DNA of 26,193 bases from Polyangiaceae bacterium (GTDB lineage: Bacteria; Myxococcota_A; Polyangia; Polyangiales; Polyangiaceae), in the NCBI GenBank assembly GCA_035545855.1, contig DASZXK010000167.1:1-26193 (forward strand), in the 5' to 3' direction. Each line of letters begins with the position of its first letter. Within the stretch, counting starts at the first letter, position 1. Of the stretch, positions 6,704 through 26,193 are shown in pieces. A model generated the notes under the pieces. That model saw only the letters and a program-made list of their open reading frames with translations, had not been told where the DNA came from and searched no databases. The position numbers and the translations under genes are program-made.

Positions 6704-6770
6704 CCGGACCCCACCCCTCCCGCGGTCTCGACTCGCCGTCACGGCGCGGCAGCGGCGAGGACGCAGGTGG

Positions 6771-6990
6771 GGGGACGTCGCCGATCGGATAGTTTGTATA
6801 CAAACTGTCCGGCGCGGAGAGAGTCCGGCGCGGAGAGAGTCCGGGGGGAGCAGCGAGGGGGCGTCGCGATCGGATGGTTTGTATACAAACTGTCCGGCGC
6901 GGAGAGAGTCCGCGGGAGCAGAGAGTTGGGGCGTCGCGTTCGGATGGCTTGCGTGCAAGCTGTCCGGGGCGGAGAGAGCGAGGGAGCACA
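6771..6990. repeat. Three tandem direct repeats (units about 86, 71 and 65 bp) in the dapB/lgt convergent intergenic region. Two copies carry the perfect 16-bp palindrome AGTTTGTATACAAACT. The third is degenerate (GCTTGCGTGCAAGC).
   Basis: Direct reading gives unit 1 at 6771-6856 (with an internal 16-bp duplication of GGCGCGGAGAGAGTCC), unit 2 at 6857-6927 and unit 3 at 6928-~6990. The shared core is GGGG(A/G)CGTCGC(C)GATCGGAT(A/G)GTTTGTATACAAACTGTCCGGCGCGGAGAGAGTCCG. Palindromes sit at 6790-6805 and 6878-6893. Confidence 0.85.
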
Positions 6991-10579: not shown

Positions 10580-11212
10580 TCAAGGGACGAGCGCCGAAAG
10601 GATCGGAGCGGGATCCTTTCCGAGCCCGTCGCTTCGCACCAGGACGCGCCCCTGGGCGTCCAGGAGGACGATCGCCGTCGAGTGGTAGAATTCGCCGTTG
10701 TCGAGCTTCCTGTAGCGGATGCCGAGCACGGCGGCGAGCTGTCGCGCGTCGTCTTCGGCGGCGCTCGCGAACGTCCATCGCGAAGGGTCGAGCGAGCGGC
10801 GCGCCATGAGCCGCGTGAGCACCTCGGGTGTGTCCCTCGCGGCGTCGAAGCTCACCATCAAGATCCTGAGGTTCTCGCGCTCGGGCTCCGGGACCAGGCG
10901 ATCGATCTTCTCCAGGTCGCTCGTGAGCATCGGGCACACGTTCGGGCAGCCCGCGTAGAACATGGAGATCAACACGGGGTGGCCACGGAACTCGTCGAGC
11001 GGCTGCCGTTTCCCGTGCTCGTCCGAGATCTGGATCTGGAGGTCGTAGACGGAGACGCCGTTCGCCGCGTCCTCCGCCGGAGGCCGTACCGGCGGCGTCG
11101 GGGCGGCGCTCGGGGACGGAGCTTCGGTCGCGGCGTCCGTCGAGGGGGCTCGTCCGCAGGCGACGAGGCCGGAGAGCAGGGCGGCGAGGGTAGCGGTACG
11201 GAACGGGTTCAC
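10580..11212 (-). CDS. SCO1/SenC-family thioredoxin-like copper chaperone, lipoprotein
   Basis: CxxxC motif FYAGCPNVCP with a downstream conserved His (YHSTAIV). Signal peptide plus lipobox LSGLVAC. The GTG start at 11212 overlaps the stop of the upstream gene (GTGA). Confidence 0.85.
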   Translation of the reverse strand: MNPFRTATLAALLSGLVACGRAPSTDAATEAPSPSAAPTPPVRPPAEDAANGVSVYDLQIQISDEHGKRQPLDEFRGHPVLISMFYAGCPNVCPMLTSDLEKIDRLVPEPERENLRILMVSFDAARDTPEVLTRLMARRSLDPSRWTFASAAEDDARQLAAVLGIRYRKLDNGEFYHSTAIVLLDAQGRVLVRSDGLGKDPAPILSALVP

Positions 11213-12000
11213 GGTTTCCTCTCGATCTCTTTCACGCACCGGAAACCGAGCCGGGACGTCGTGTAGCGGGCTTCGAGCGAACTCCGGAATGCGATGCGCA
11301 TGAACGCCGCGTAGTCGCTGGGGTTCTGGGCGTCGGCACCGGCGCCGCCGCAGAAGCGCGTCTGGTCGACGACCCCTTTCTCGCGGGAGTCCATCGTGAC
11401 CAGGCTCGCGCCGAAATCGTAGACCCACTCCCACACGAGGCCGTGGAGGTCCCGGATGCCCCAGAAGTTCGGCTTCGAACCGCCCACGTCGGCGAGCGGC
11501 CTGGCGGACGTCGGTTCGGCGTACCAGGCGAGCACGCGTTCGGTCCACGCCGGGTCATCGGCTCCCCGCGCGGACGAGTCACTCGCCGCGGCGGCGAGCT
11601 CCCACTGCCGTTCGGTGGGAAGCTCGGCCCCGCGCGCCTTGCAGTACGCCTTCGCCGAAAACCAGCTCACGTTCGTCACGGGAGCCGCCGGACGAACGGA
11701 CGCGCCGAGGCGTTCGGCGTCTTCCCAGTGCGCGAGGTAGCCGAAATCCGCGAAGAGAGGCTTCACCCGATCGCGCCGCCACTCGGGCCGCTCGTGCACG
11801 AACGCGAGGAAGGCCTGGTTCGTGACGGGCGTGACGTCCATGTAGAACGCGGGCACCTTCACCGTGCGCTCCGTCGGCGAGGCGGGGTAGAGCGGCTCGT
11901 ACACCCCGGGGCCGACGCGCGCCATGCCCCGCGGCGCCCGCTCGCCGAGCGCGGGAGCCGCGAGGAGCACGCCGAGGAGCGCGATCCGCCAGGGGATCAA
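11209..12000 (-). CDS. nirV: NirV-like protein of the formylglycine-generating-enzyme (FGE)-sulfatase family
   Basis: FGE/SUMF1-type motifs: [28 protein letters not shown], and [22 protein letters not shown]-terminal signal-like [15 protein letters not shown]. Lies immediately downstream of nirK, as in known nirK-nirV operons. The start is uncertain. A candidate TTG at 12000 overlaps the nirK stop (TTGA). Confidence 0.72.
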
Positions 12001-13505
12001 ATGCCTGCTCCGCTCGAGCCCGAAGCCCGGACGCGCGCGACCTCGGCGGGCGAGACCACACCGTGGTCGTTCCCCCACGAGTTCAGGACGTACGTGATGA
12101 CGTTCGCGATGTCGTCGTCGCCGAGGTGGCTCCATGGCGGCATCGTCGAGTTGAACGTCGCTCCGTTCACGCGGATCGGACCCGTGAAGCCGTTCAGGAC
12201 CGTCGAGATGATCTTCGTCTTCTCGTTCTTCACGAGGTAGTCCGAGCCTGCGAGCGGGGGGAACGTGTTCGGCATCCCGAGGCCGGTCGCCTGGTGGCAG
12301 GTGATGCACGTCGTCGCGAACACGGATTTGCCGGCCGCGATCTGCTGCTCCTTGGTGAGAGGCCCCGAGGTGGGCTGCGTCGCGGCGAGGATCTGCGCCG
12401 GAGCCGCGGACTTTTCTGCCACGTAGGCCGAGTCCGCCTCCTTGCCCGAATAGACCACCGCGTCTTCGGGCCCGGAGACCTTGAGCGTTCCGACGGCGCC
12501 CTTGTTGAACGCGCGGAAGAGGGAATGGTCGACGATCGCGTACGAGCCGGGAACCTGGAGCTTGAACTCGGCCATCGTCGTGCCCCCGGCGGGCACCATC
12601 GTCGTCTGGACGTTCTCCTGGACCTTCGAGCCGCCCTCCGGATAGATGCGGTCGAAGATCTCCCCGATCACGTGGAAGCTCGACGTGAGGTTCGGTCCAC
12701 CGACGCCGAAGTAGATCCGCACGGTGTCGCCGACGTAGGCCTTCAGCGCCTTGTCGCCGAGGAGCGAGCCCTCGGCTCCGTTGAAGACGACGTACGTGGG
12801 TCGTTCGTCGATGCCCTTCTGCATGTCGAACGCTTGAAGACCCTTCTCGTGGTACTTCCCCGTGGTGTAGACGTCGCCCTGCATGACGTAGAACTCGCGG
12901 TCCACCGGGGGGAGGCCCTCCGGCGGCTCGACGAGGATCATCCCGTACATTCCGTTCGCCACGTGCATCGGCACCGGCGCCGTCGCGCAGTGGTAGACGA
13001 ACAGGCCCGCGTTCAGCGCGCGGAACGTGAACTTCGATTCGTGTCCCGGCGCCGTGAAGCTCGACGCCGCGCCTCCGCCGGGGCCGGTCACGGCGTGGAG
13101 GTCGATGTTGTGCGGCATCTTGCTCGAGGCGTCGTTCTGGAGGTGGAACTCGACGACGTCCCCCTGGCGCACGCGGATGAAGCTTCCGGGCACCGTGCCT
13201 CCGAACGTCCAGAAGTCGTACTGGACGCCGTCCGCCACCGGCAACGTGACCTCCTTCACGGCGAGCTTCACCACGACGTGCGCGGGCTTCGTGCGGTTCG
13301 TCGCAGGCGGCACGTTCGGAGGCGAGGTGAGCTGCGCGAGGATCGGTTCACCCGTCGGAAGACTCGTGACGTCGAGCTCCGGCTTCGCGGGCGTCGTCGC
13401 CGACGGTTTCGGGCGTACGGTATGTTCGGAAGGAGTCTCGCTGCATCCGAGCGACAGCAGAGCGAGGGAGGAGAGCGCGGTTCCAAATCGTCCGACGTGT
13501 TTCAT
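11997..13505 (-). CDS. nirK: Copper-containing nitrite reductase NirK with a fused C-terminal mono-haem cytochrome c domain
   Basis: Cupredoxin motifs PHNIDLHAV and [18 protein letters not shown] supply the type 1/type 2 Cu ligands (H, C, H, M). The C-terminal domain carries the CITCH haem-binding motif. N-terminal signal peptide with Cys (LLSLGC), so it may be a lipoprotein like Neisseria AniA. ATG at 13505 (a GTG lies immediately upstream). Confidence 0.9.
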
Positions 13506-13757
13506 CACGGGCGAGCAAAAGCACCCGCCGTGCCACGGGCGATTTTCCTGCGTCTCGCGATGGAGCCGATGTGCGCGGGGCGCAGATCCTTCGCGCTCGC
13601 GCAGCGGGGTCGTGCGCAGAACGTGGTCACGTGCCCTACGGGGCGCACCCGGTGCGCCTGCCCCGTCGATCCTCTTCGAACGCCGAGAGCAGATTCTGCG
13701 CGTTCGCACGAAATGAGATCCGTCGCCCGTCGAGCCGCGAGGACCGGATCCGGAGCT

Positions 13758-14147
13758 CTACTCGCCCGTGGGACGCGGTGGGTCCGGCGGAGCGCCCGCG
13801 TCGCCGCTCGCCGGCTCGGTTCCGGGCCGCTTCAGCCCGGCGCCGAACGAAAGGGGTTCGTGCTCCGGCTTCGGTGGCGATGGCTTCGCGGACGACCCCG
13901 AAGGCTTCGGCGCGGATCGCGGAATGAGCCCGGCCTTCCACGCCGAGCCGGTCGACGGAGGACCCTGCCGGAAGAGCGCCGCGTCCCCCGGACGCGTTCC
14001 ACGGCTACCCGGCGGATCGAGCTGACTCGACCCGTAGCACTGCGTGCCGTACTTCGGCCCCGACTGACAGTACGTGTCCACGCAGGCGGCGACGAGCGCG
14101 GACGAGACGCAGAGAGACAGGACGCCCGTCAGCGAAGCGGCTCTCAC
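13758..14147 (-). CDS. Small secreted Cys-rich lipoprotein with a Pro-rich C-terminus, hypothetical
   Basis: GTG at 14147 gives a signal peptide with lipobox (RAASLTGVLSLCVSSALVAAC) followed by VDTYCQSGPKYGTQCYGSS. Third-codon GC read by hand is about 85%. It shares orientation with nirK and is directly upstream of it. The full track ORF (to 14336) is rejected because it would abut the divergent gene's start. Confidence 0.45.
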   Translation of the reverse strand: MRAASLTGVLSLCVSSALVAACVDTYCQSGPKYGTQCYGSSQLDPPGSRGTRPGDAALFRQGPPSTGSAWKAGLIPRSAPKPSGSSAKPSPPKPEHEPLSFGAGLKRPGTEPASGDAGAPPDPPRPTGE

Positions 14148-14338
14148 GGACGATCGGATAGCACGCTCCGCGAGCGATCCGGGCTGGCCGGGGCGTCTCT
14201 CGCCGGGGAACTGCACCGAAGAGGGCCCCGCGACTCGCCCCCAGGGAGAAACCGGAGCCGGCGCCACACGCCGCGTGCCTGCCCGGCCCCTGGTCCGGTG
14301 ACTATCGGCTGGTCCACGCCCAGGAGAAATACCCAAAA

Positions 14339-15400
14339 ATGCTCGCTTTTCGCCCCCGTGCCGCCGTCTTCGCCGTTCTCGGCTCCGCGCTTCTGGCCGT
14401 CGCCTGCGGAGACGACGCTTCCACCGCCGCCGCTCACCGGCCCGGCGGGTCGCTCGACGGAACGGGAAGTGGCGCTTCCGTGACGCCCGGCGCTGGCGGC
14501 TCGGTGAGCCCGGGTGCGGGCGGAGCGATCTCCACCGGCGCGGGCGGCACGACGTCCGGGAGCGGGGGTGAGACGTCCGCCGGCACGGGCGGCTGGCAGG
14601 AGCTCACGTTCACGAGCGACACGTTCACGGTAGCCGCCGGGGACGAGGTGTACCGCGCGCAGAACTTCGCGAACCCCATCGGTCACGACGTCGACATCAT
14701 CGAGAGCGAGTCGACGATGGCGAAGGGCTCGCACCACATGTTCGCGTTCCACGGCGCTAGCTACAATCAGGACGGCGCCATCGGGGACTCCACGGGCATC
14801 GAGTTCGCTCCGTACATCCACACCGCGCAGACGCCGGAGCAGCTCACTCGTTACCCCGCCGGCATCGGCCGCTACCTCCCGGGGGCAGACGGCATCCGGC
14901 TCCAGGTCCACTACATCAACACGTCGGATCAGGACATCCAGGCGTCCGTCTCGCTCCGCATCCGCTACGTGAACACCGATCAGGTGACGTTCCATGCCGC
15001 GGAGATCTTCCTGAACGACGTCGGCGTCCGCGTCCCGCCGGGCACGAGCACCGCGACGACGACCGTGAGCATGCCTTACGACGTGAAGCTCCTCGGCGCG
15101 GGGAGCCACATGCACCGGCGCGCCGTCGGCTTCGACTCCACGACGAACGACGGCCGCGAGATCTACACGACGACGGACTGGAACGAGCCCGTCGCGGCCG
15201 CGTTCGACCCGACGATCGACATCGCCCAGGGCGGCAGCATCACGTGGTCCTGCACGTACGACAACCAGACTGGCCAGACGCTCACCTTCGGCGAGTCCGC
15301 GGCCACGAACGAGATGTGCATCTTCAGCGGCGTCTACTACCCCGCGCCGAACGGCGCCGGCATCACGCGGCAGTGCCTCGGCCGCGGGTCGTGCTTCTGA
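14339..15400 (+). CDS. Secreted lipoprotein with a Gly/Ser/Thr-rich linker and a putative PHM/DBH-like type II copper monooxygenase domain
   Basis: Signal peptide plus lipobox LLAVACG. Low-complexity linker (GAGGSVSPGAGGAISTGAGGTTSGSGG). Then SHHMFAFHG (HHM, residues 132-134), H191, GSHMHRR (HxH, 257/259) and NEMCIF (M326). The spacing and local context match the CuH (HH..H) and CuM (HxH..M) sites of peptidylglycine alpha-hydroxylating monooxygenase. Confidence 0.55.
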   Translation: MLAFRPRAAVFAVLGSALLAVACGDDASTAAAHRPGGSLDGTGSGASVTPGAGGSVSPGAGGAISTGAGGTTSGSGGETSAGTGGWQELTFTSDTFTVAAGDEVYRAQNFANPIGHDVDIIESESTMAKGSHHMFAFHGASYNQDGAIGDSTGIEFAPYIHTAQTPEQLTRYPAGIGRYLPGADGIRLQVHYINTSDQDIQASVSLRIRYVNTDQVTFHAAEIFLNDVGVRVPPGTSTATTTVSMPYDVKLLGAGSHMHRRAVGFDSTTNDGREIYTTTDWNEPVAAAFDPTIDIAQGGSITWSCTYDNQTGQTLTFGESAATNEMCIFSGVYYPAPNGAGITRQCLGRGSCF

Positions 15401-16195: not shown

Positions 16196-16300
16196 GCTCG
16201 CTCTCGTCGCTCGGGGCGCGTTTCCCGAAAGGAAAACGCTGAGATGGACCCGTCGAACCTGATCCGGCTCGTACCGGCGTAGGGAAGGCGATCCGAGGGT
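16196..16300 (+). promoter_or_regulatory. TPP (thiamine pyrophosphate) riboswitch, THI element, in the thiC leader
   Basis: Matches the THI-box consensus: GGGGCGCG ... CGCUGAGA ... GACCCGUCGAACCUGAUCCGGCUCGUACCGGCGUAGGGAAGG. The CUGAGA, ACCUGAUC, the pyrimidine-sensing stem and GCGUAGGGA are all present. Lies 40-140 nt upstream of the thiC ATG, with the AAGGAG Shine-Dalgarno downstream of it. Confidence 0.9.
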
Positions 16301-16339
16301 CGTCTTTTCGCGCCGGGTGAGCCCCCAAGGAGCCGAAAG

Positions 16340-21597: not shown

Positions 21598-22878
21598 TCA
21601 GCTCTCGGCGAGCGCCTGCGTCGCGGCGTCGATCGTCCGGTCGATGTCGGCTTCGGTGTGAGCGGCGGAGAGAAACGCCGCCTCGAACTGCGACGGCGGC
21701 CAGTACACGCCGCGCGAGGTGAGCCCCTGGTGGAACCTGCCGAAGCGCTTCGTGTCGCTCTTCTCGGCGTCCTTCCAGGAGCGGACGGGGCCGTCGTGGA
21801 AAAACAGCGTGAGCATCGAGCCGACCCGCTGCACGACGCCCGTCCCCTTCGTCTTCCCGAGCCCTTCGCGGAGGCCCGCCTCGAGTCGCGCGCCGAGGCG
21901 TTCCAGCGTCTCGTAGACGGAAGCATCGAGCCGTTCGAGCGTCGCGATTCCGGCCGTGACGGCGAGCGGATTGCCGCTGAGCGTCCCCGCTTGGTACACG
22001 GGGCCGATGGGCGCGACGTTCTTCATGATGTCGCGACGTCCACCGTAGACCGCGAGGGGCATTCCCCCGCCGACGACCTTGCCGAGGCACGTCATCTGCG
22101 GCCGGAGGCCGAAGCGTTCCTGGGCGCCGCCGCGGGCGAGACGCGATCCGGTCATGACCTCGTCGAAGATGGAGACCGCGCCGTGCTTCTCGCAGAGGTC
22201 GATGATCGCCTCGAGGAAGCCGGGGACCGGCGGCACGCACCCCATGTTCCCCGCCACCGGCTCGACGATGACCGCCGCGATGCGCGAGCCTTCTCGCTCG
22301 AAGAGCTCCGTCAGCGCTCCCACGTCGTTGTACGGCGCGGTCACGGTGCTGGAGACCGTCGCGGCCGGAACTCCGGCGGAGTCCGGCGCGCCGAACGTCG
22401 CCGCTCCGCTCCCGGCCTTCACGAGGAGCGCGTCCGCGTGCCCGTGGTAGGCGCCGTCGAACTTCACGATGACGTCCCGCTTCGTCGCGCCGCGCGCGAC
22501 GCGGAGCGCGCTCATGGTCGCTTCCGTCCCGCTCGAGACGCACCGGAGCATCTCCATGGAGGGGTAGATCTTCGTGACGAGCTCGGCGAAGCGCACCTCG
22601 AGCTCCGTCGGAGCGCCGAACGAGAGCCCCCCCTCCGCGGCCTGCTGCACCGCGCGGACGACGTCCGGGTGCGCGTGTCCGAGGATCGCCGGCCCCCAGC
22701 TCCCGACGTAGTCGATGTACTCGCGGTCGTCCGCGCCGACGATGCGCGCGCCCTTCGCCCGCTTCACGAACACCGGGTGTCCGCCCACGGCACGAAACGC
22801 GCGGACCGGGCTGTTCACCCCGCCGGGTAGGAGCTTCTCGGCGCGCTCGAGGAGGGACTGGGAGACGGCGTCGGACAT
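21598..22878 (-). CDS. hemL: Glutamate-1-semialdehyde 2,1-aminomutase
   Basis: N-terminal LLPGGVNSPVRAF and the class-III aminotransferase blocks (YDGAYHGH, the FDEVMTG region). Trimmed to the ATG at 22878 (MSDAVSQSLLERAEKLLPGG). Confidence 0.94.
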   Translation of the reverse strand: MSDAVSQSLLERAEKLLPGGVNSPVRAFRAVGGHPVFVKRAKGARIVGADDREYIDYVGSWGPAILGHAHPDVVRAVQQAAEGGLSFGAPTELEVRFAELVTKIYPSMEMLRCVSSGTEATMSALRVARGATKRDVIVKFDGAYHGHADALLVKAGSGAATFGAPDSAGVPAATVSSTVTAPYNDVGALTELFEREGSRIAAVIVEPVAGNMGCVPPVPGFLEAIIDLCEKHGAVSIFDEVMTGSRLARGGAQERFGLRPQMTCLGKVVGGGMPLAVYGGRRDIMKNVAPIGPVYQAGTLSGNPLAVTAGIATLERLDASVYETLERLGARLEAGLREGLGKTKGTGVVQRVGSMLTLFFHDGPVRSWKDAEKSDTKRFGRFHQGLTSRGVYWPPSQFEAAFLSAAHTEADIDRTIDAATQALAES

Positions 22879-22952
22879 GCGAGCGACGCTAGCACCGGTC
22901 CGGCGCGGCGCGCGCAGGCCCATCGCCGGAGCTTCCCGTCCGGCGCGAGCGA

Positions 22953-22988
22953 GGGGGGGGCTTGCGAGCGATATTCCAAACTGGAATA
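22953..22988. repeat. Copy A of an inverted-repeat element: G8 tract + 9 nt + GATATTCCAAACTGGAATA (a 7-3-7 palindrome). Lies in the hemL promoter region, 3' of the large lipoprotein gene.
   Basis: Read directly: gaGGGGGGGGcttgcgagcGATATTCCAAACTGGAATAca. It is AT-rich in a 70% GC background. Confidence 0.8.
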
Positions 22989-23085
22989 CAGACACGCGGC
23001 CCCCGACGGCCCGGTGACGCGTTCAGTCGGCGCCGCAGACGGCCAGCGCCCGCTTCGCTTGACGCGACGGTGTTGGCCCCGGCGG

Positions 23086-25689
23086 TCAAACACGGGCGCG
23101 CCGTCTGCTGCGTAGCAGCAGGGCCGCGACGAGCCCCCACGCCGCGGTGGCCGACGAAGTCTTCGACTGTACTGTGCGGCACCCGCACCCACCGGGATCG
23201 ACCGGGAGATGGCTCTGATCGCCCGGCAGCCCGCTAGAATCTGGTGCCGCGCTCGCGTCGTGGCGGTGTCCAGCATCGGGTCGTGAAGGGAGCCCGCCCG
23301 CTTCGCGCGGCATGGATGAATCGAGCCTACTCACGGAGGAGTCGCGGCTCGCCACGACGGCGTCGCGGACTCCGGAGTCCGTTGGCTTCTTGCCGGCGTC
23401 TCCGTCGGCACTCGCGTCTTCCGGGACGGCGCTGTCCGCGATTGCCGCATCGTGCGTGCCGGTCGAGACTGCTCCATCACGGCAACAGTCATCCCCCGTG
23501 TCGCCTGGCCGAGCGTCGCCGGGACTCGCATCGACAGTCGACTCGAGTCCGCCATCAGGAGCGAGGCCGAACAAGCGCAGACCGATCCGTGGTGTCGGAC
23601 CCGCCACGGATGAGAATGCGAACAGCGCTTCCCCTTGAATTCGGCTCGCTCCAGATGTCCACGGGAAAAAGGGCGATGAATCGAAGGTCGCGGGGGGGCC
23701 GAATTCTTCGGCGCTTTCGCTCGCGATGGTCACGCGGCCGCGAGCCGCGCGTCCGTCCCCACCCACGACGAACAACCGTCGACCGTCCGCGATGACGATG
23801 GAGCTGGAGGGCAAGGAATCGCTGAAAACGGGCGTTCCGAAAGTCCAGGATCCCGCTGTCTTCGTCAGAGTCGCGAGTCCGGTGCTGCAGGACAGCACGA
23901 AGCCGGCCCCGACCGGGGCGATTCCGCTGGCCGAAGAGCTGCACGGGGAGCCCAGCGCCTCGGCCGAAGCCCCGCCGGATTCCAGGACGTAGAGCGCACC
24001 GTTGTCGCTGAATGCTTCAGCGGAGCCGTTTTCCGAGAAGGCCGTGATCTGATATGGCGTTCCCGGAATCCCGCGCTCCGGTGCCGCGCCGCCATCCGAA
24101 GAAAGGTCAGTGCGTGCGAGGAAGCCGCCGGAGAAGCTCTTGCATCCATCGCCGCCCTCCCAGTACTCGTGCAGGCCGCCCAAAGTCCCGATCTGGTGTG
24201 CGCCGATGCCATCGAACGGCCCTGCGACGAGCAATGGTCGTGCATCGAGCAAACTCCCATTCGCGGCCATGCGAAGCGCGACGACGGCATCCTTCAGCAG
24301 ACCCCGTTCGATCCAGGTGATCCAGTAGGTCGATCCATCGAACGCGACCTGCGGCTCGACCTGGTCCATGAACGGTTCAGCCGTCCGGCGGGGGAGAACG
24401 AGGGGCGGCGAATCCAGGAAGACGCCCGACGGGGTGACGCGTGTTGCAACGATTTCCGAGCGGCGCCCGCGCAGGCTTTCCCACGCAACGAGGTAGGTCG
24501 AGCCGTCTGTCGCGACGACGGGGGCTGTCTGGCTATCCTCCGCCGTGCGACCGCCGATTTCGACCTCCCGGATGGGAGTTCCGTCCTTCGCGATCCGCAC
24601 CGCGATCGAGTCGTGTGGGCCACGCCAGGTCGCGAGATGGGTGAATCCGTCGAACGCGATCATCGATTCCGTGCCCGTCGCCCAGGGCGACGACGAAACC
24701 GGCGTGACCCCGGAAACCGCACCGTTCGCGATCCGCACGGCAACGACGGTGGAGTCATCACGCGCGAGCACGACGAAGGTTGATCCGTCCGAGTCAGCGG
24801 CGCCGACTCGTTGATCGGGCGCGAGCGTCAGCATCGGCGAGATCGGGGTCCCGTCTTTTGGATCTAGGAACACCGCGCGCACGGCGGTGACCGGTCCGGC
24901 CTTGCACCACACGGATCCATCTGGGTCGGGCGTCGGCGCGGTTGCCGTCCAGGCGTATAGGCATTCGGCGTTCGTGCACGCGAGCGCGGCGGGTTCATAG
25001 AACGCCGTCTCGCCCAGCGGAATGTCCTGCTCGATCTCCGCGCCGTCGGTCTCGCGGACACCCCGAAGTCGCAACTCCTGGCTCGAACAGGCGGTGTCCG
25101 CGCAGGCACGCGCCGCATACCAGTAGTTGCCGCCGCTGAACGCACGACCGTCGATGCGTAGAGTAAAGAGCCCGATGGCCGTGCTTCCGAGGTACGTTCC
25201 GAACGAGTCGAAACGGTTGACGGAACCGTCCCACAAGGCGAATCCGTCAGCCCCGGCAACCGGTAGAGAACCCTGGACGATGGCAACCGGCGTCGTGCTA
25301 CCGGATTGATCGAGCCAAAAGGGCTTCGTCGACATCGCAAGGAACCGGGAACCAATGAAGGCGACTCCGCTTCCACCTCCCGGAATGCCTACGACGTCCA
25401 GGTTCGTGCCGTTTGCATCGATTCGATGGAGGCGGATCCCGGAATCGGTCTGGAGTTCCACGAGCGTCACGCCGCCGCCGGCTGCGATTCCGATCGGCCA
25501 GCTACGGGGTGCGGTGGGCACGGATGCGCCCGGCGTACGCCACTCCTTTGACACGACCGGCACCTCCAAGAGGGGCGCTCTCGTGGTTCCTGTTTCCACG
25601 GACGATCGCGGCAAGGGATCGGCGCAGCCCGAGAGTATCAGGGCGCCGGTCAGTGCCCAGATCCCTTGCAATCGAACCTCCTCGGGCAT
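23086..25689 (-). CDS. Large secreted lipoprotein with internal ~50-aa repeats and a C-terminal MYXO-CTERM-type sorting tail
   Basis: N-terminal signal plus lipobox (WALTGALILSGC). Repeats carry a DGSTYLVAW ... VAxRIxxDGT consensus. The C-terminus is GGCGCRTVQ ... AAWGLVAALLLRSRRRARV (GCGC, hydrophobic stretch, then a poly-Arg tail). 867 aa. Confidence 0.8.
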   Translation of the reverse strand: MPEEVRLQGIWALTGALILSGCADPLPRSSVETGTTRAPLLEVPVVSKEWRTPGASVPTAPRSWPIGIAAGGGVTLVELQTDSGIRLHRIDANGTNLDVVGIPGGGSGVAFIGSRFLAMSTKPFWLDQSGSTTPVAIVQGSLPVAGADGFALWDGSVNRFDSFGTYLGSTAIGLFTLRIDGRAFSGGNYWYAARACADTACSSQELRLRGVRETDGAEIEQDIPLGETAFYEPAALACTNAECLYAWTATAPTPDPDGSVWCKAGPVTAVRAVFLDPKDGTPISPMLTLAPDQRVGAADSDGSTFVVLARDDSTVVAVRIANGAVSGVTPVSSSPWATGTESMIAFDGFTHLATWRGPHDSIAVRIAKDGTPIREVEIGGRTAEDSQTAPVVATDGSTYLVAWESLRGRRSEIVATRVTPSGVFLDSPPLVLPRRTAEPFMDQVEPQVAFDGSTYWITWIERGLLKDAVVALRMAANGSLLDARPLLVAGPFDGIGAHQIGTLGGLHEYWEGGDGCKSFSGGFLARTDLSSDGGAAPERGIPGTPYQITAFSENGSAEAFSDNGALYVLESGGASAEALGSPCSSSASGIAPVGAGFVLSCSTGLATLTKTAGSWTFGTPVFSDSLPSSSIVIADGRRLFVVGGDGRAARGRVTIASESAEEFGPPATFDSSPFFPWTSGASRIQGEALFAFSSVAGPTPRIGLRLFGLAPDGGLESTVDASPGDARPGDTGDDCCRDGAVSTGTHDAAIADSAVPEDASADGDAGKKPTDSGVRDAVVASRDSSVSRLDSSMPREAGGLPSRPDAGHRHDASAAPDSSGLPGDQSHLPVDPGGCGCRTVQSKTSSATAAWGLVAALLLRSRRRARV

Positions 25690-25744
25690 GGGAATGCCTT
25701 ATCCGAAACCCAAACCCGCTGCCACGTCTTGCCCAGGTCGCGAG

Positions 25745-25786
25745 GGATATTCCAGTTTGGAATATCGCCCCTGGAATACCCCCCCC
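25745..25786. repeat. Copy B of the inverted-repeat element, in reverse orientation relative to copy A: GGATATTCCAGTTTGGAATATC (perfect 9-3-9 palindrome) + extra half-site CTGGAATA + C8 tract. About 60-95 bp upstream of the lipoprotein ATG.
   Basis: Read directly. The reverse complement is GGGGGGGG-TATTCCAG-gggc-GATATTCCAAACTGGAATATCC, which matches copy A (G8 + spacer + GATATTCCAAACTGGAATA). Confidence 0.8.
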
Positions 25787-25832
25787 TGCATCTTGCTGCG
25801 TGCCGCTCGCGCCGTCAGGCTCGCTCGCGCCA

Positions 25833-26193
25833 TCAGGCTTGCTCGCGCCGGCCCTTGTCGTTCACGAGCGATCGCCAGGACTCGATGCGGGTCTGGATGT
25901 CCGGCGGGAAGTGGAATCTCGAGAGGCGACCGAGGAGGTGCGGCGTGTGGTCGCCGACGCGGGACTGGTCGTTGAAGACGCTCGCCGCGGCGTCGATGGC
26001 CGCTTCGGCGCTCTCGGCGTCGCCGGCCTCGGCGGCGAGCCAGGCTTCGGTCAGGAGCGAGTGCTGCTTCGGCTCGGGCTCCTTCACGCCGGCGCGATGG
26101 ATCTCCGCGAGGAGCGTGCGCGCGGCCTCGATGTGGCCACGGCCGAGCGCGATCTGGCAGAGCAGGAGCTTTGCCTCCACGACGCCCCAGGGG
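25833..26193 (-). CDS. 3' part of a gene that continues beyond the right edge of the window, hypothetical
   Basis: The open frame reaches the window end. The C-terminal 115 aa are Ala/Glu-rich and helical (LLAEIHRAGVKEPEPKQHSLLTEAWLAAEAGDAESAEAAIDAA). No family assignable from the fragment. Confidence 0.35.
   Translation of the reverse strand, partial: PWGVVEAKLLLCQIALGRGHIEAARTLLAEIHRAGVKEPEPKQHSLLTEAWLAAEAGDAESAEAAIDAAASVFNDQSRVGDHTPHLLGRLSRFHFPPDIQTRIESWRSLVNDKGRREQA

Follow-up and report, generated by a model that had tools for sequence, protein, structure and literature searches.

We describe here a 26,193-bp contig from a metagenome-assembled genome (MAG) of a Polyangiaceae bacterium, the whole of which was analysed and is hereafter called the window (annotated proteins HVU04689-HVU04691; locus tags VHE30_23205 and VHE30_23210). 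Near its right end, a single gene encoding a predicted lipoprotein of 867 amino acids stands between a TPR-domain gene and hemL, the gene for glutamate-1-semialdehyde 2,1-aminomutase, and is enclosed by two inverted copies of a short palindromic repeat. The best description of this locus is that of a lineage-specific insertion of an acquired surface-lipoprotein gene beside hemL, bounded by inverted repeats; as a structural observation, it is well supported. As to its origin, our leading and still tentative explanation is a non-autonomous insertion of about 2.8-2.9 kb, of which the repeats would be the inverted ends, and which would have brought the lipoprotein gene between the TPR gene and hemL.

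Two inverted copies of one repeat unit

The two copies, A on the hemL side and B on the TPR side, contain a perfect 21-nt inverted repeat, GCGATATTCCAAACTGGAATA, found at 22968-22988 and again, in the opposite orientation, at 25748-25768. Read on the plus strand, copy A is made of a G8 run, then CTTGCGAGC, then GATATTCCA-AAC-TGGAATAC, and copy B of GATATTCCA-GTT-TGGAATATC (25746-25766), GCCCC, TGGAATA (25772-25778) and a C8 run. The supplementary TGGAATA half-site that the first-pass annotation had noticed in copy B is real, and is due to a 14-nt tandem duplication (TGGAATAyCsCCCC twice, TGGAATATCGCCCC / TGGAATACCCCCCC). The centre of the dyad lies 67 nt before the lipoprotein ATG for copy B, and 102 nt before the hemL ATG for copy A. 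Both copies extend into longer imperfect stem-loops with G-rich/C-rich bases, of fold z-score -4.0 for B and -2.6 for A. No further copy of the repeat was found within the 26-kb contig.

Such a pair is not expected by chance. When the window was simulated 200 times with a first-order Markov model, the longest inverted repeat that was perfect and without overlap measured 14-20 nt and never 21, and the 19-mer core had no match in 100 shuffles. The GC content of the window ranges from 65 to 73%, and 19-mers with at least 13 A/T are found six times only, two of them being the repeat copies. Similarly, no G/C homopolymer of at least 8 nt exists in the 26 kb apart from the G8 and C8 runs, and each of these is placed outside its palindrome. 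Both rarities taken together, the dyad, a short linker and a G8 run are the minimum content of a unit that is present twice, in inverted orientation. The repeat is therefore real and non-random, and the position and description given for the pair at first pass hold.

We also compared the sequences that flank the two palindromes. Inward, no similarity was found: the inner flanks score 14, and flanks compared in direct orientation 12-13, both below a null mean of about 16.5 which was itself measured on the outer-arm comparison. Outward, some 50 nt are weakly similar when compared in inverted orientation (empirical p 0.007), but not in direct orientation (0.24). This outward similarity was given little weight, because it runs on one side into the conserved final codons of the TPR gene, and on the other into the native sequence upstream of hemL, both of which are ancestral or native to the host.

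The enclosed gene and the TPR/hemL junction

The lipoprotein gene differs in composition from its neighbours, with a GC content at third codon positions (GC3) of 0.74 along its full length, compared to 0.92 for both hemL and the TPR gene, and 0.86-0.93 for most others. Its lipobox, LILSGC, is present only if translation begins at the 867-codon start. The corresponding NCBI annotation, HVU04690.1 (811 amino acids), begins 56 codons downstream, so that signal peptide and lipobox are lost. The first-pass annotation had called the product a MYXO-CTERM lipoprotein: the lipoprotein part stands with the long start, and the Cys-rich, hydrophobic and Arg-rich C-terminal tail does align over the complete MYXO-CTERM model (TIGR03901, positions 1-34 of 34), but at 15.1 bits, under the curated cut-off of 20.

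A word-indexed protein search returned the lipoprotein itself and two weak matches, whereas the exhaustive HMMER search retrieved 2786 representative proteins at E<=0.001; with so many distant relatives, the label of orphan gene was dropped. The best homologues are 31-37% identical over 6-10 matched stretches, mostly in the repeat module around residues 330-490. Among the ten best that were checked, seven carry type-IX-secretion C-terminal sorting domains. Weak matches to beta-propeller families were also obtained. Exact look-ups of hemL and of the lipoprotein yielded no record. The picture, as read from sequence, is that of a probable surface-anchored repeat protein of foreign composition, and we infer that its gene was acquired horizontally. 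Within the segment, the coding signal is confined to the lipoprotein open reading frame (ORF), no ORF of the segment has a Pfam match on either strand, and the opposite strand holds no credible gene. Among the scanned ORFs of the entire contig, no transposase, recombinase or transcription factor gene was found, in keeping with the earlier remark that no recombinase gene was to be seen.

The junction was then compared with that of relatives. A search with the TPR fragment led to a related contig, L164, in which the TPR C-terminus is 66% and hemL 73% identical to those of the window. There, the TPR gene is followed by 43 nt and then by hemL, without lipoprotein gene and without palindrome. The TPR gene stops at the same residue in both (..WRSLVNDRSRRGQD* against ..WRSLVNDKGRREQA*) and the start residue of hemL is also the same. 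As 2954 nt separate the two genes here and 43 nt in L164, the intervening DNA is lineage-specific. An empty site is thus at hand, from this one relative. The first-pass annotation had asked whether relatives would lack the gene and retain a single copy of the repeat: the absence of the gene is observed in L164, but no leftover copy is found at its empty site. Homology with relatives on the hemL side may extend up to about position 22925.

Of the TPR relatives that were looked up and had DNA available, L192 is the closest (TPR 71% identical). Its TPR gene is followed by an unrelated gene for a signal-peptide protein (581-1066), and the palindrome is absent. The gene after TPR being different, this junction varies from one lineage to another, and may be a site where genes for exported proteins have landed repeatedly. 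At four other hemL relatives (L121, L122, L165, L166), the genes neighbouring hemL differ from those of the window. The nearest hemL proteins elsewhere are 80-83% identical.

We examined next the sequence upstream of hemL, since copy A had been placed in the promoter of this gene. Copy A is indeed 92-110 nt upstream of the hemL ATG, but outside the core promoter, about 95 nt upstream of a -10-like TAGCGT (22886-22891) that lies 7 nt before the ATG. An alignment of upstream sequences revealed a conserved TGCTAGCGTCG, with a TAnnnT -10-like hexamer 6-8 nt before the ATG, in 5 of 6 Polyangiaceae hemL sequences. With such a motif beside the ATG, the promoter of hemL probably adjoins the start codon, and the hemL mRNA may be leaderless. 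The palindrome is absent upstream of hemL in 5 relatives (L121, L122, L164, L165 and L166, of which L165 could be read over about 57 nt only), and is therefore not a conserved hemL operator. Separately, a 4195-nt Logan contig from an independent assembly (P0288) contains a hemL ORF of 441 amino acids, 100% identical to positions 21598-22923 of the window, including a 15-codon upstream extension.

Several other signals were looked for in the region. The scans gave no match to a sigma-70-type promoter, nor to an intrinsic terminator (terminator-like site or U tract) in 22700-26000. In the sigma-54 consensus, TGGCAC-N5-TTGCW, an invariant GG and an invariant GC are separated by 10 nt. In the direction of the genes, both copies read TGGAATATC[G/C]CTCGC, which respects the GG-N10-GC spacing but departs from the consensus at 4 other conserved positions, so that the match to a sigma-54 promoter is weak. 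By reading, GGAAT elements of the ECF -35 type come without a matching -10 at the right spacing.

Coordinates around the repeats are collected in Table 1; from the TPR gene to hemL, all genes are on the minus strand, and the contig ends 400 nt beyond copy B. In the 18-nt tandem repeat of the TPR end, the stop codon is reiterated just downstream of the real one. Farther away in the window, a copper-related cluster (10580-15400) encodes SCO1/SenC, a formylglycine-generating-enzyme-like protein, a multicopper oxidase-cytochrome c fusion and a Cu2 monooxygenase C-terminal domain protein, and a TPP riboswitch (RF00059, 70.5 bits) is found at 16202-16303, upstream of thiC.

Table 1. Features at the repeat-bearing end of the window.
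Feature	Position	Strand	Remarks
hemL (glutamate-1-semialdehyde 2,1-aminomutase)	21598-22878	-	TIGR00713, 595 bits
Interval from TPR stop to hemL start	22879-25832		2954 nt; holds both repeat copies and the lipoprotein gene
Intergenic region with copy A	22879-23085		207 nt
G8 run, outer side of copy A	22953-22960	+	sole G run of at least 8 nt in the window
Copy A	22968-22989	+	21-nt shared block 22968-22988; 7-3-7 palindrome 22970-22989
867-aa lipoprotein gene between the repeats	23086-25689	-	lipobox signal peptide, ~50-aa internal repeats, sub-threshold MYXO-CTERM-like tail
Intergenic region with copy B	25690-25832		143 nt
Copy B	25746-25768	-	perfect 9-3-9 palindrome 25746-25766; shared 21-nt block 25748-25768 on the minus strand
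14-nt tandem duplication	25758-25785	+	TRF: period 14, 2 copies, 85% matches
C8 run (minus-strand G8), outer side of copy B	25779-25786	+	sole C run of at least 8 nt in the window
18-nt tandem repeat, 2.6 copies	25804-25850	+	repeats the last codons and stop of the TPR gene
TPR-domain gene, 3' part	25833-26193	-	stop codon 25833-25835; C-terminal end at the residue found in relatives; truncated by the contig end

The repeats as possible ends of a non-autonomous insertion

The first-pass annotation had left three options: terminal repeats of an inserted cassette, operators through which one regulator would control both hemL and the lipoprotein gene, or recombination sites of an invertible or excisable segment. 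It is the first that gains most from the present analysis, with a gene of foreign composition that is missing in L164. We favour it because one event would then explain identical inverted units at both ends of a lineage-specific, compositionally foreign, one-gene piece of DNA devoid of mobility gene. The insertion would resemble a mobile insertion cassette, with one passenger gene and no transposase. Each G8 run would be the outer tip of an end, the AT-rich palindrome would serve as an inner protein-binding module, and the transposase or recombinase acting on these ends would be encoded in another part of the genome. The presence of copy A upstream of hemL would be a mere by-product of the insertion. 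The arrangement found, a passenger gene between inverted repeats with no transposase inside, is the one expected if the element is mobilised in trans. An insertion between the TPR gene and hemL looks like ordinary genome plasticity.

The likeness with described mobile insertion cassettes, such as MIC231 of Bacillus cereus and TnXax1-IR of Xanthomonas (PMC4337579), concerns several traits: passenger gene(s) placed between short inverted repeats, a transposase that is not inside, inverted repeats of comparable length with G-rich tips, a cargo of surface or secreted proteins of foreign composition, and an empty site in a relative. In Xanthomonas, the inverted repeats of the cassettes are 33-97 bp long, and their tips are GGGGG or GAGGG (PMC4337579). 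Unlike these cassettes, the insertion of the window is without 5-bp or any target-site duplication, the identity of its arms is patchy, its ends are unrelated to any insertion sequence or transposon end compared, and neither a second copy nor a cognate transposase is known. It may work in the manner of a mobile insertion cassette, a suggestion that we make with reserve, and we do not class it as one.

Several observations weigh against the cassette explanation. Direct reading revealed no target-site duplication (2-10 bp) at either candidate boundary: the G8 tips are flanked by AGCGA and TGCAT, and the extended arms by ..GGTCC and CTTGT.., so that the 5-bp duplication of the Tn3-family type is missing. 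Compared by eye, the 38-bp inverted repeat of Tn3 shares with the ends GGGG and chance-level matches. The linkers between G8 and the 21-mer, of 9 nt in A and 12 nt in B, are mutually unrelated, which makes the arms patchy. No transposase or recombinase is present on the contig, and no cognate transposase is known. Having neither target-site duplication nor transposase, the insertion is not a demonstrated mobile element. That the event was a gain here, and not a loss in L164, is deduced from composition and from one syntenic relative. Finally, no other copy was found in related genomes. A scan with GCGATATTCCANNNTGGAATA of 185,579 species-representative genomes, among which the source MAG does not figure, returned 36 matches, none in Myxococcota; most belong to Bacteroidota and Prevotella of low GC. 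When JGI metagenomes were scanned with the G7-linked form, two unrelated contigs of 43% GC were returned, and no related high-GC contig.

Other collections were searched as well. In viral scans, the 18-mer occurs solely in low-GC phage families, inside conserved, probably coding, sequence. No match was found to the 2954-nt segment in a plasmid search, and Rfam gave nothing at the repeat locus even at E<=1. In Prevotella/Hoylesella (L125, L128, L130, L139, L149, L154, L155, L160), a common ..atcaaGCGATATTCCATCGTGGAATAtctcgaaag.. sequence is present in multiple copies, on three contigs in one strain, and looks like a repeated element or gene.

Other origins for the repeats, and what they would mean

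The most serious competitor, though an unlikely one in our opinion, is a pair of operators, bound upstream of the lipoprotein gene and of hemL by one transcription factor encoded elsewhere, which would co-regulate the two genes or loop the DNA between them. A perfect AT-rich dyad is conspicuous in a 69% GC genome, both copies are upstream of co-directional genes, and a third half-site is present in copy B. The form of the dyad, ATATTCCA-N3-TGGAATA, agrees with T-N11-A, the generic LysR form. Moreover, the same dyad, GCGATATTCCA-N3-TGGAATA, is found directly before regulator genes in two unrelated high-GC bacteria: in a Solirubrobacteraceae MAG of 74% GC (L153, 4164-4184), 2 nt separate its end from a LysR-family gene, itself divergent from a PF03601 gene, and in an uncultured bacterium of 65% GC (L159, 1469-1489), 14 nt separate it from a PadR-family gene. 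These two dyads are likely autoregulatory operators of the regulator genes. Unlike such LysR/PadR palindromic operators, the sites of the window have no regulator gene nearby, nor anywhere on the contig, and are not conserved at hemL: the dyad is missing in the five relatives, in which the conserved -10 adjoins the ATG (with the limit given above for L165). The operator proposal made at first pass is thus weakened for hemL, and what it would amount to is a lineage-specific pair. In addition, seen from its downstream gene, G8 precedes the dyad at one copy and follows it at the other, which excludes one and the same promoter role at both, and the linkage of G8 to the dyad in inverted orientation is left unexplained. 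An operator does not require the identity of the non-symmetric central triplet and flank either, and some copying would still be needed for the origin of copy A. The association of a G7-G8 tract with AT-rich inverted repeats also recalls the type-1 operators of CsoR/RcnR, where a G/C tract is flanked by AT-rich inverted repeats, as for NreA (TATCCtctcgggggGGATA; PMC12724321), and the nre promoter contains TTGGAATATCC (PMC12724321). Their tract lies between the arms, whereas here it is 9-12 nt outside a complete palindrome and the flanks of G8 are not inverted repeats; having the G tract outside the dyad is the wrong layout, and a CsoR/RcnR operator was rejected.

Somewhat less probable still are two explanations of about equal merit in our view. 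In one of them, the copies are dispersed, species-specific hairpin repeats (REP-, BIME- or MITE-like), two of which happen to occupy consecutive intergenic regions, maybe as RNA stem-loops in untranslated regions. The extended stem-loops described above agree with it, a target-site duplication is not expected for such elements, and species-specificity would account for the missing matches elsewhere. The window also contains a second, unrelated repeat of the same build (G run, GC-rich linker, AT-rich perfect palindrome), as three tandem units of about 70-90 nt each at ~6768-6985, between the convergent genes dapB and lgt and without Rfam match. Units 1 and 2 have GGTTTGTATACAAACTGTCC as hairpin, and unit 3 has GGCTTGCGTGCAAGCTGTCC, where two compensatory changes (T>C / A>G) leave the stem intact. 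However, two adjacent copies, both extragenic, as the sole ones in 26 kb are improbable unless the family is very abundant, Rfam is silent at the locus, and a U tract of the terminator type is absent. In the other, the pair is a neutral scar with no present role, a short inverted duplication that arose on the spot when illegitimate recombination inserted the gene. The weak outward similarity, inverted only and overlapping ancestral host sequence on both sides, would suit it, as would the neighbouring 14-nt and 18-nt tandem duplications, which mark a slippage-prone region. Yet that similarity is GC-rich, of low complexity and marginally significant, and neutral decay should not keep G8 and 21 nt perfect with 9-12 unrelated nt in between. 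The least probable of the four, to our mind, is that a recombinase encoded elsewhere inverts the 2.76-kb segment, switching the surface lipoprotein on and off. The inverted orientation, an identical asymmetric centre that permits strand exchange, and the surface protein as cargo are in its favour, and G8 runs at the flanks are reminiscent of phase-variable loci; the site could also be seen as an asymmetric core of 7 bp, CAAACTG, between two arms of 7 bp. The hix/gix and fimS inversion switches likewise have short inverted repeats around a few-kb segment for a surface structure. Unlike in these switches, no recombinase gene is in or beside the segment (up to the contig end, 400 nt to the right), the gene is entirely inside, the opposite strand offers no credible alternative gene, a second orientation is not in evidence, and the geometry differs from the 12-2-12 of hix, with an odd-length centre unsuited to serine invertases. 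In the pdif modules of Acinetobacter plasmids, genes are flanked by inversely oriented XerC/XerD sites (11-6-11, 28 bp), with many sites per replicon. They are comparable in being single-gene modules between inverted, short, dyad-symmetric sites with a recombinase encoded elsewhere; unlike them, the site described here is 9-3-9 or 7-7-7, chromosomal, and known in two copies. An equally doubtful idea, along the same line, is that G8 plus the 21-bp dyad constitute an undescribed means of moving or flipping single surface-protein genes in Polyangiaceae, in which a recombinase encoded elsewhere would recognise the AT-rich core (CAAACTG with its 7-bp arms), and either invert the 2.76 kb, making a surface lipoprotein phase-variable, or swap cassettes at the TPR/hemL junction, where L192 has another exported-protein gene.

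A few further candidates were discarded. Dyads of the Fur or parS type have, by reading, another spacing, and integron attC sites would stand in direct orientation. An assembly chimera at the 21-mer was rejected, given that reads and final k-mers are far longer than 21 nt, and that a chimera would not produce two inverted copies. The 7- and 8-mers resembling the half-site in lgt (7244, 7292) were attributed to chance, since they are within coding sequence.

If the dyads proved to be operators, or sites of inversion, a surface lipoprotein would seem to be regulated or phase-variable, and neither is documented in this group. If, as we tentatively prefer, the dyads belong to the ends of a cassette, the locus would be a compact example of how myxobacteria acquire surface-protein genes, as single-gene units with their own inverted ends. 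The gene would have been dropped beside an essential haem-biosynthesis gene, leaving the hemL promoter undisturbed, and non-autonomous elements with such ends would form a new family, to be sought in Polyangiaceae genomes.

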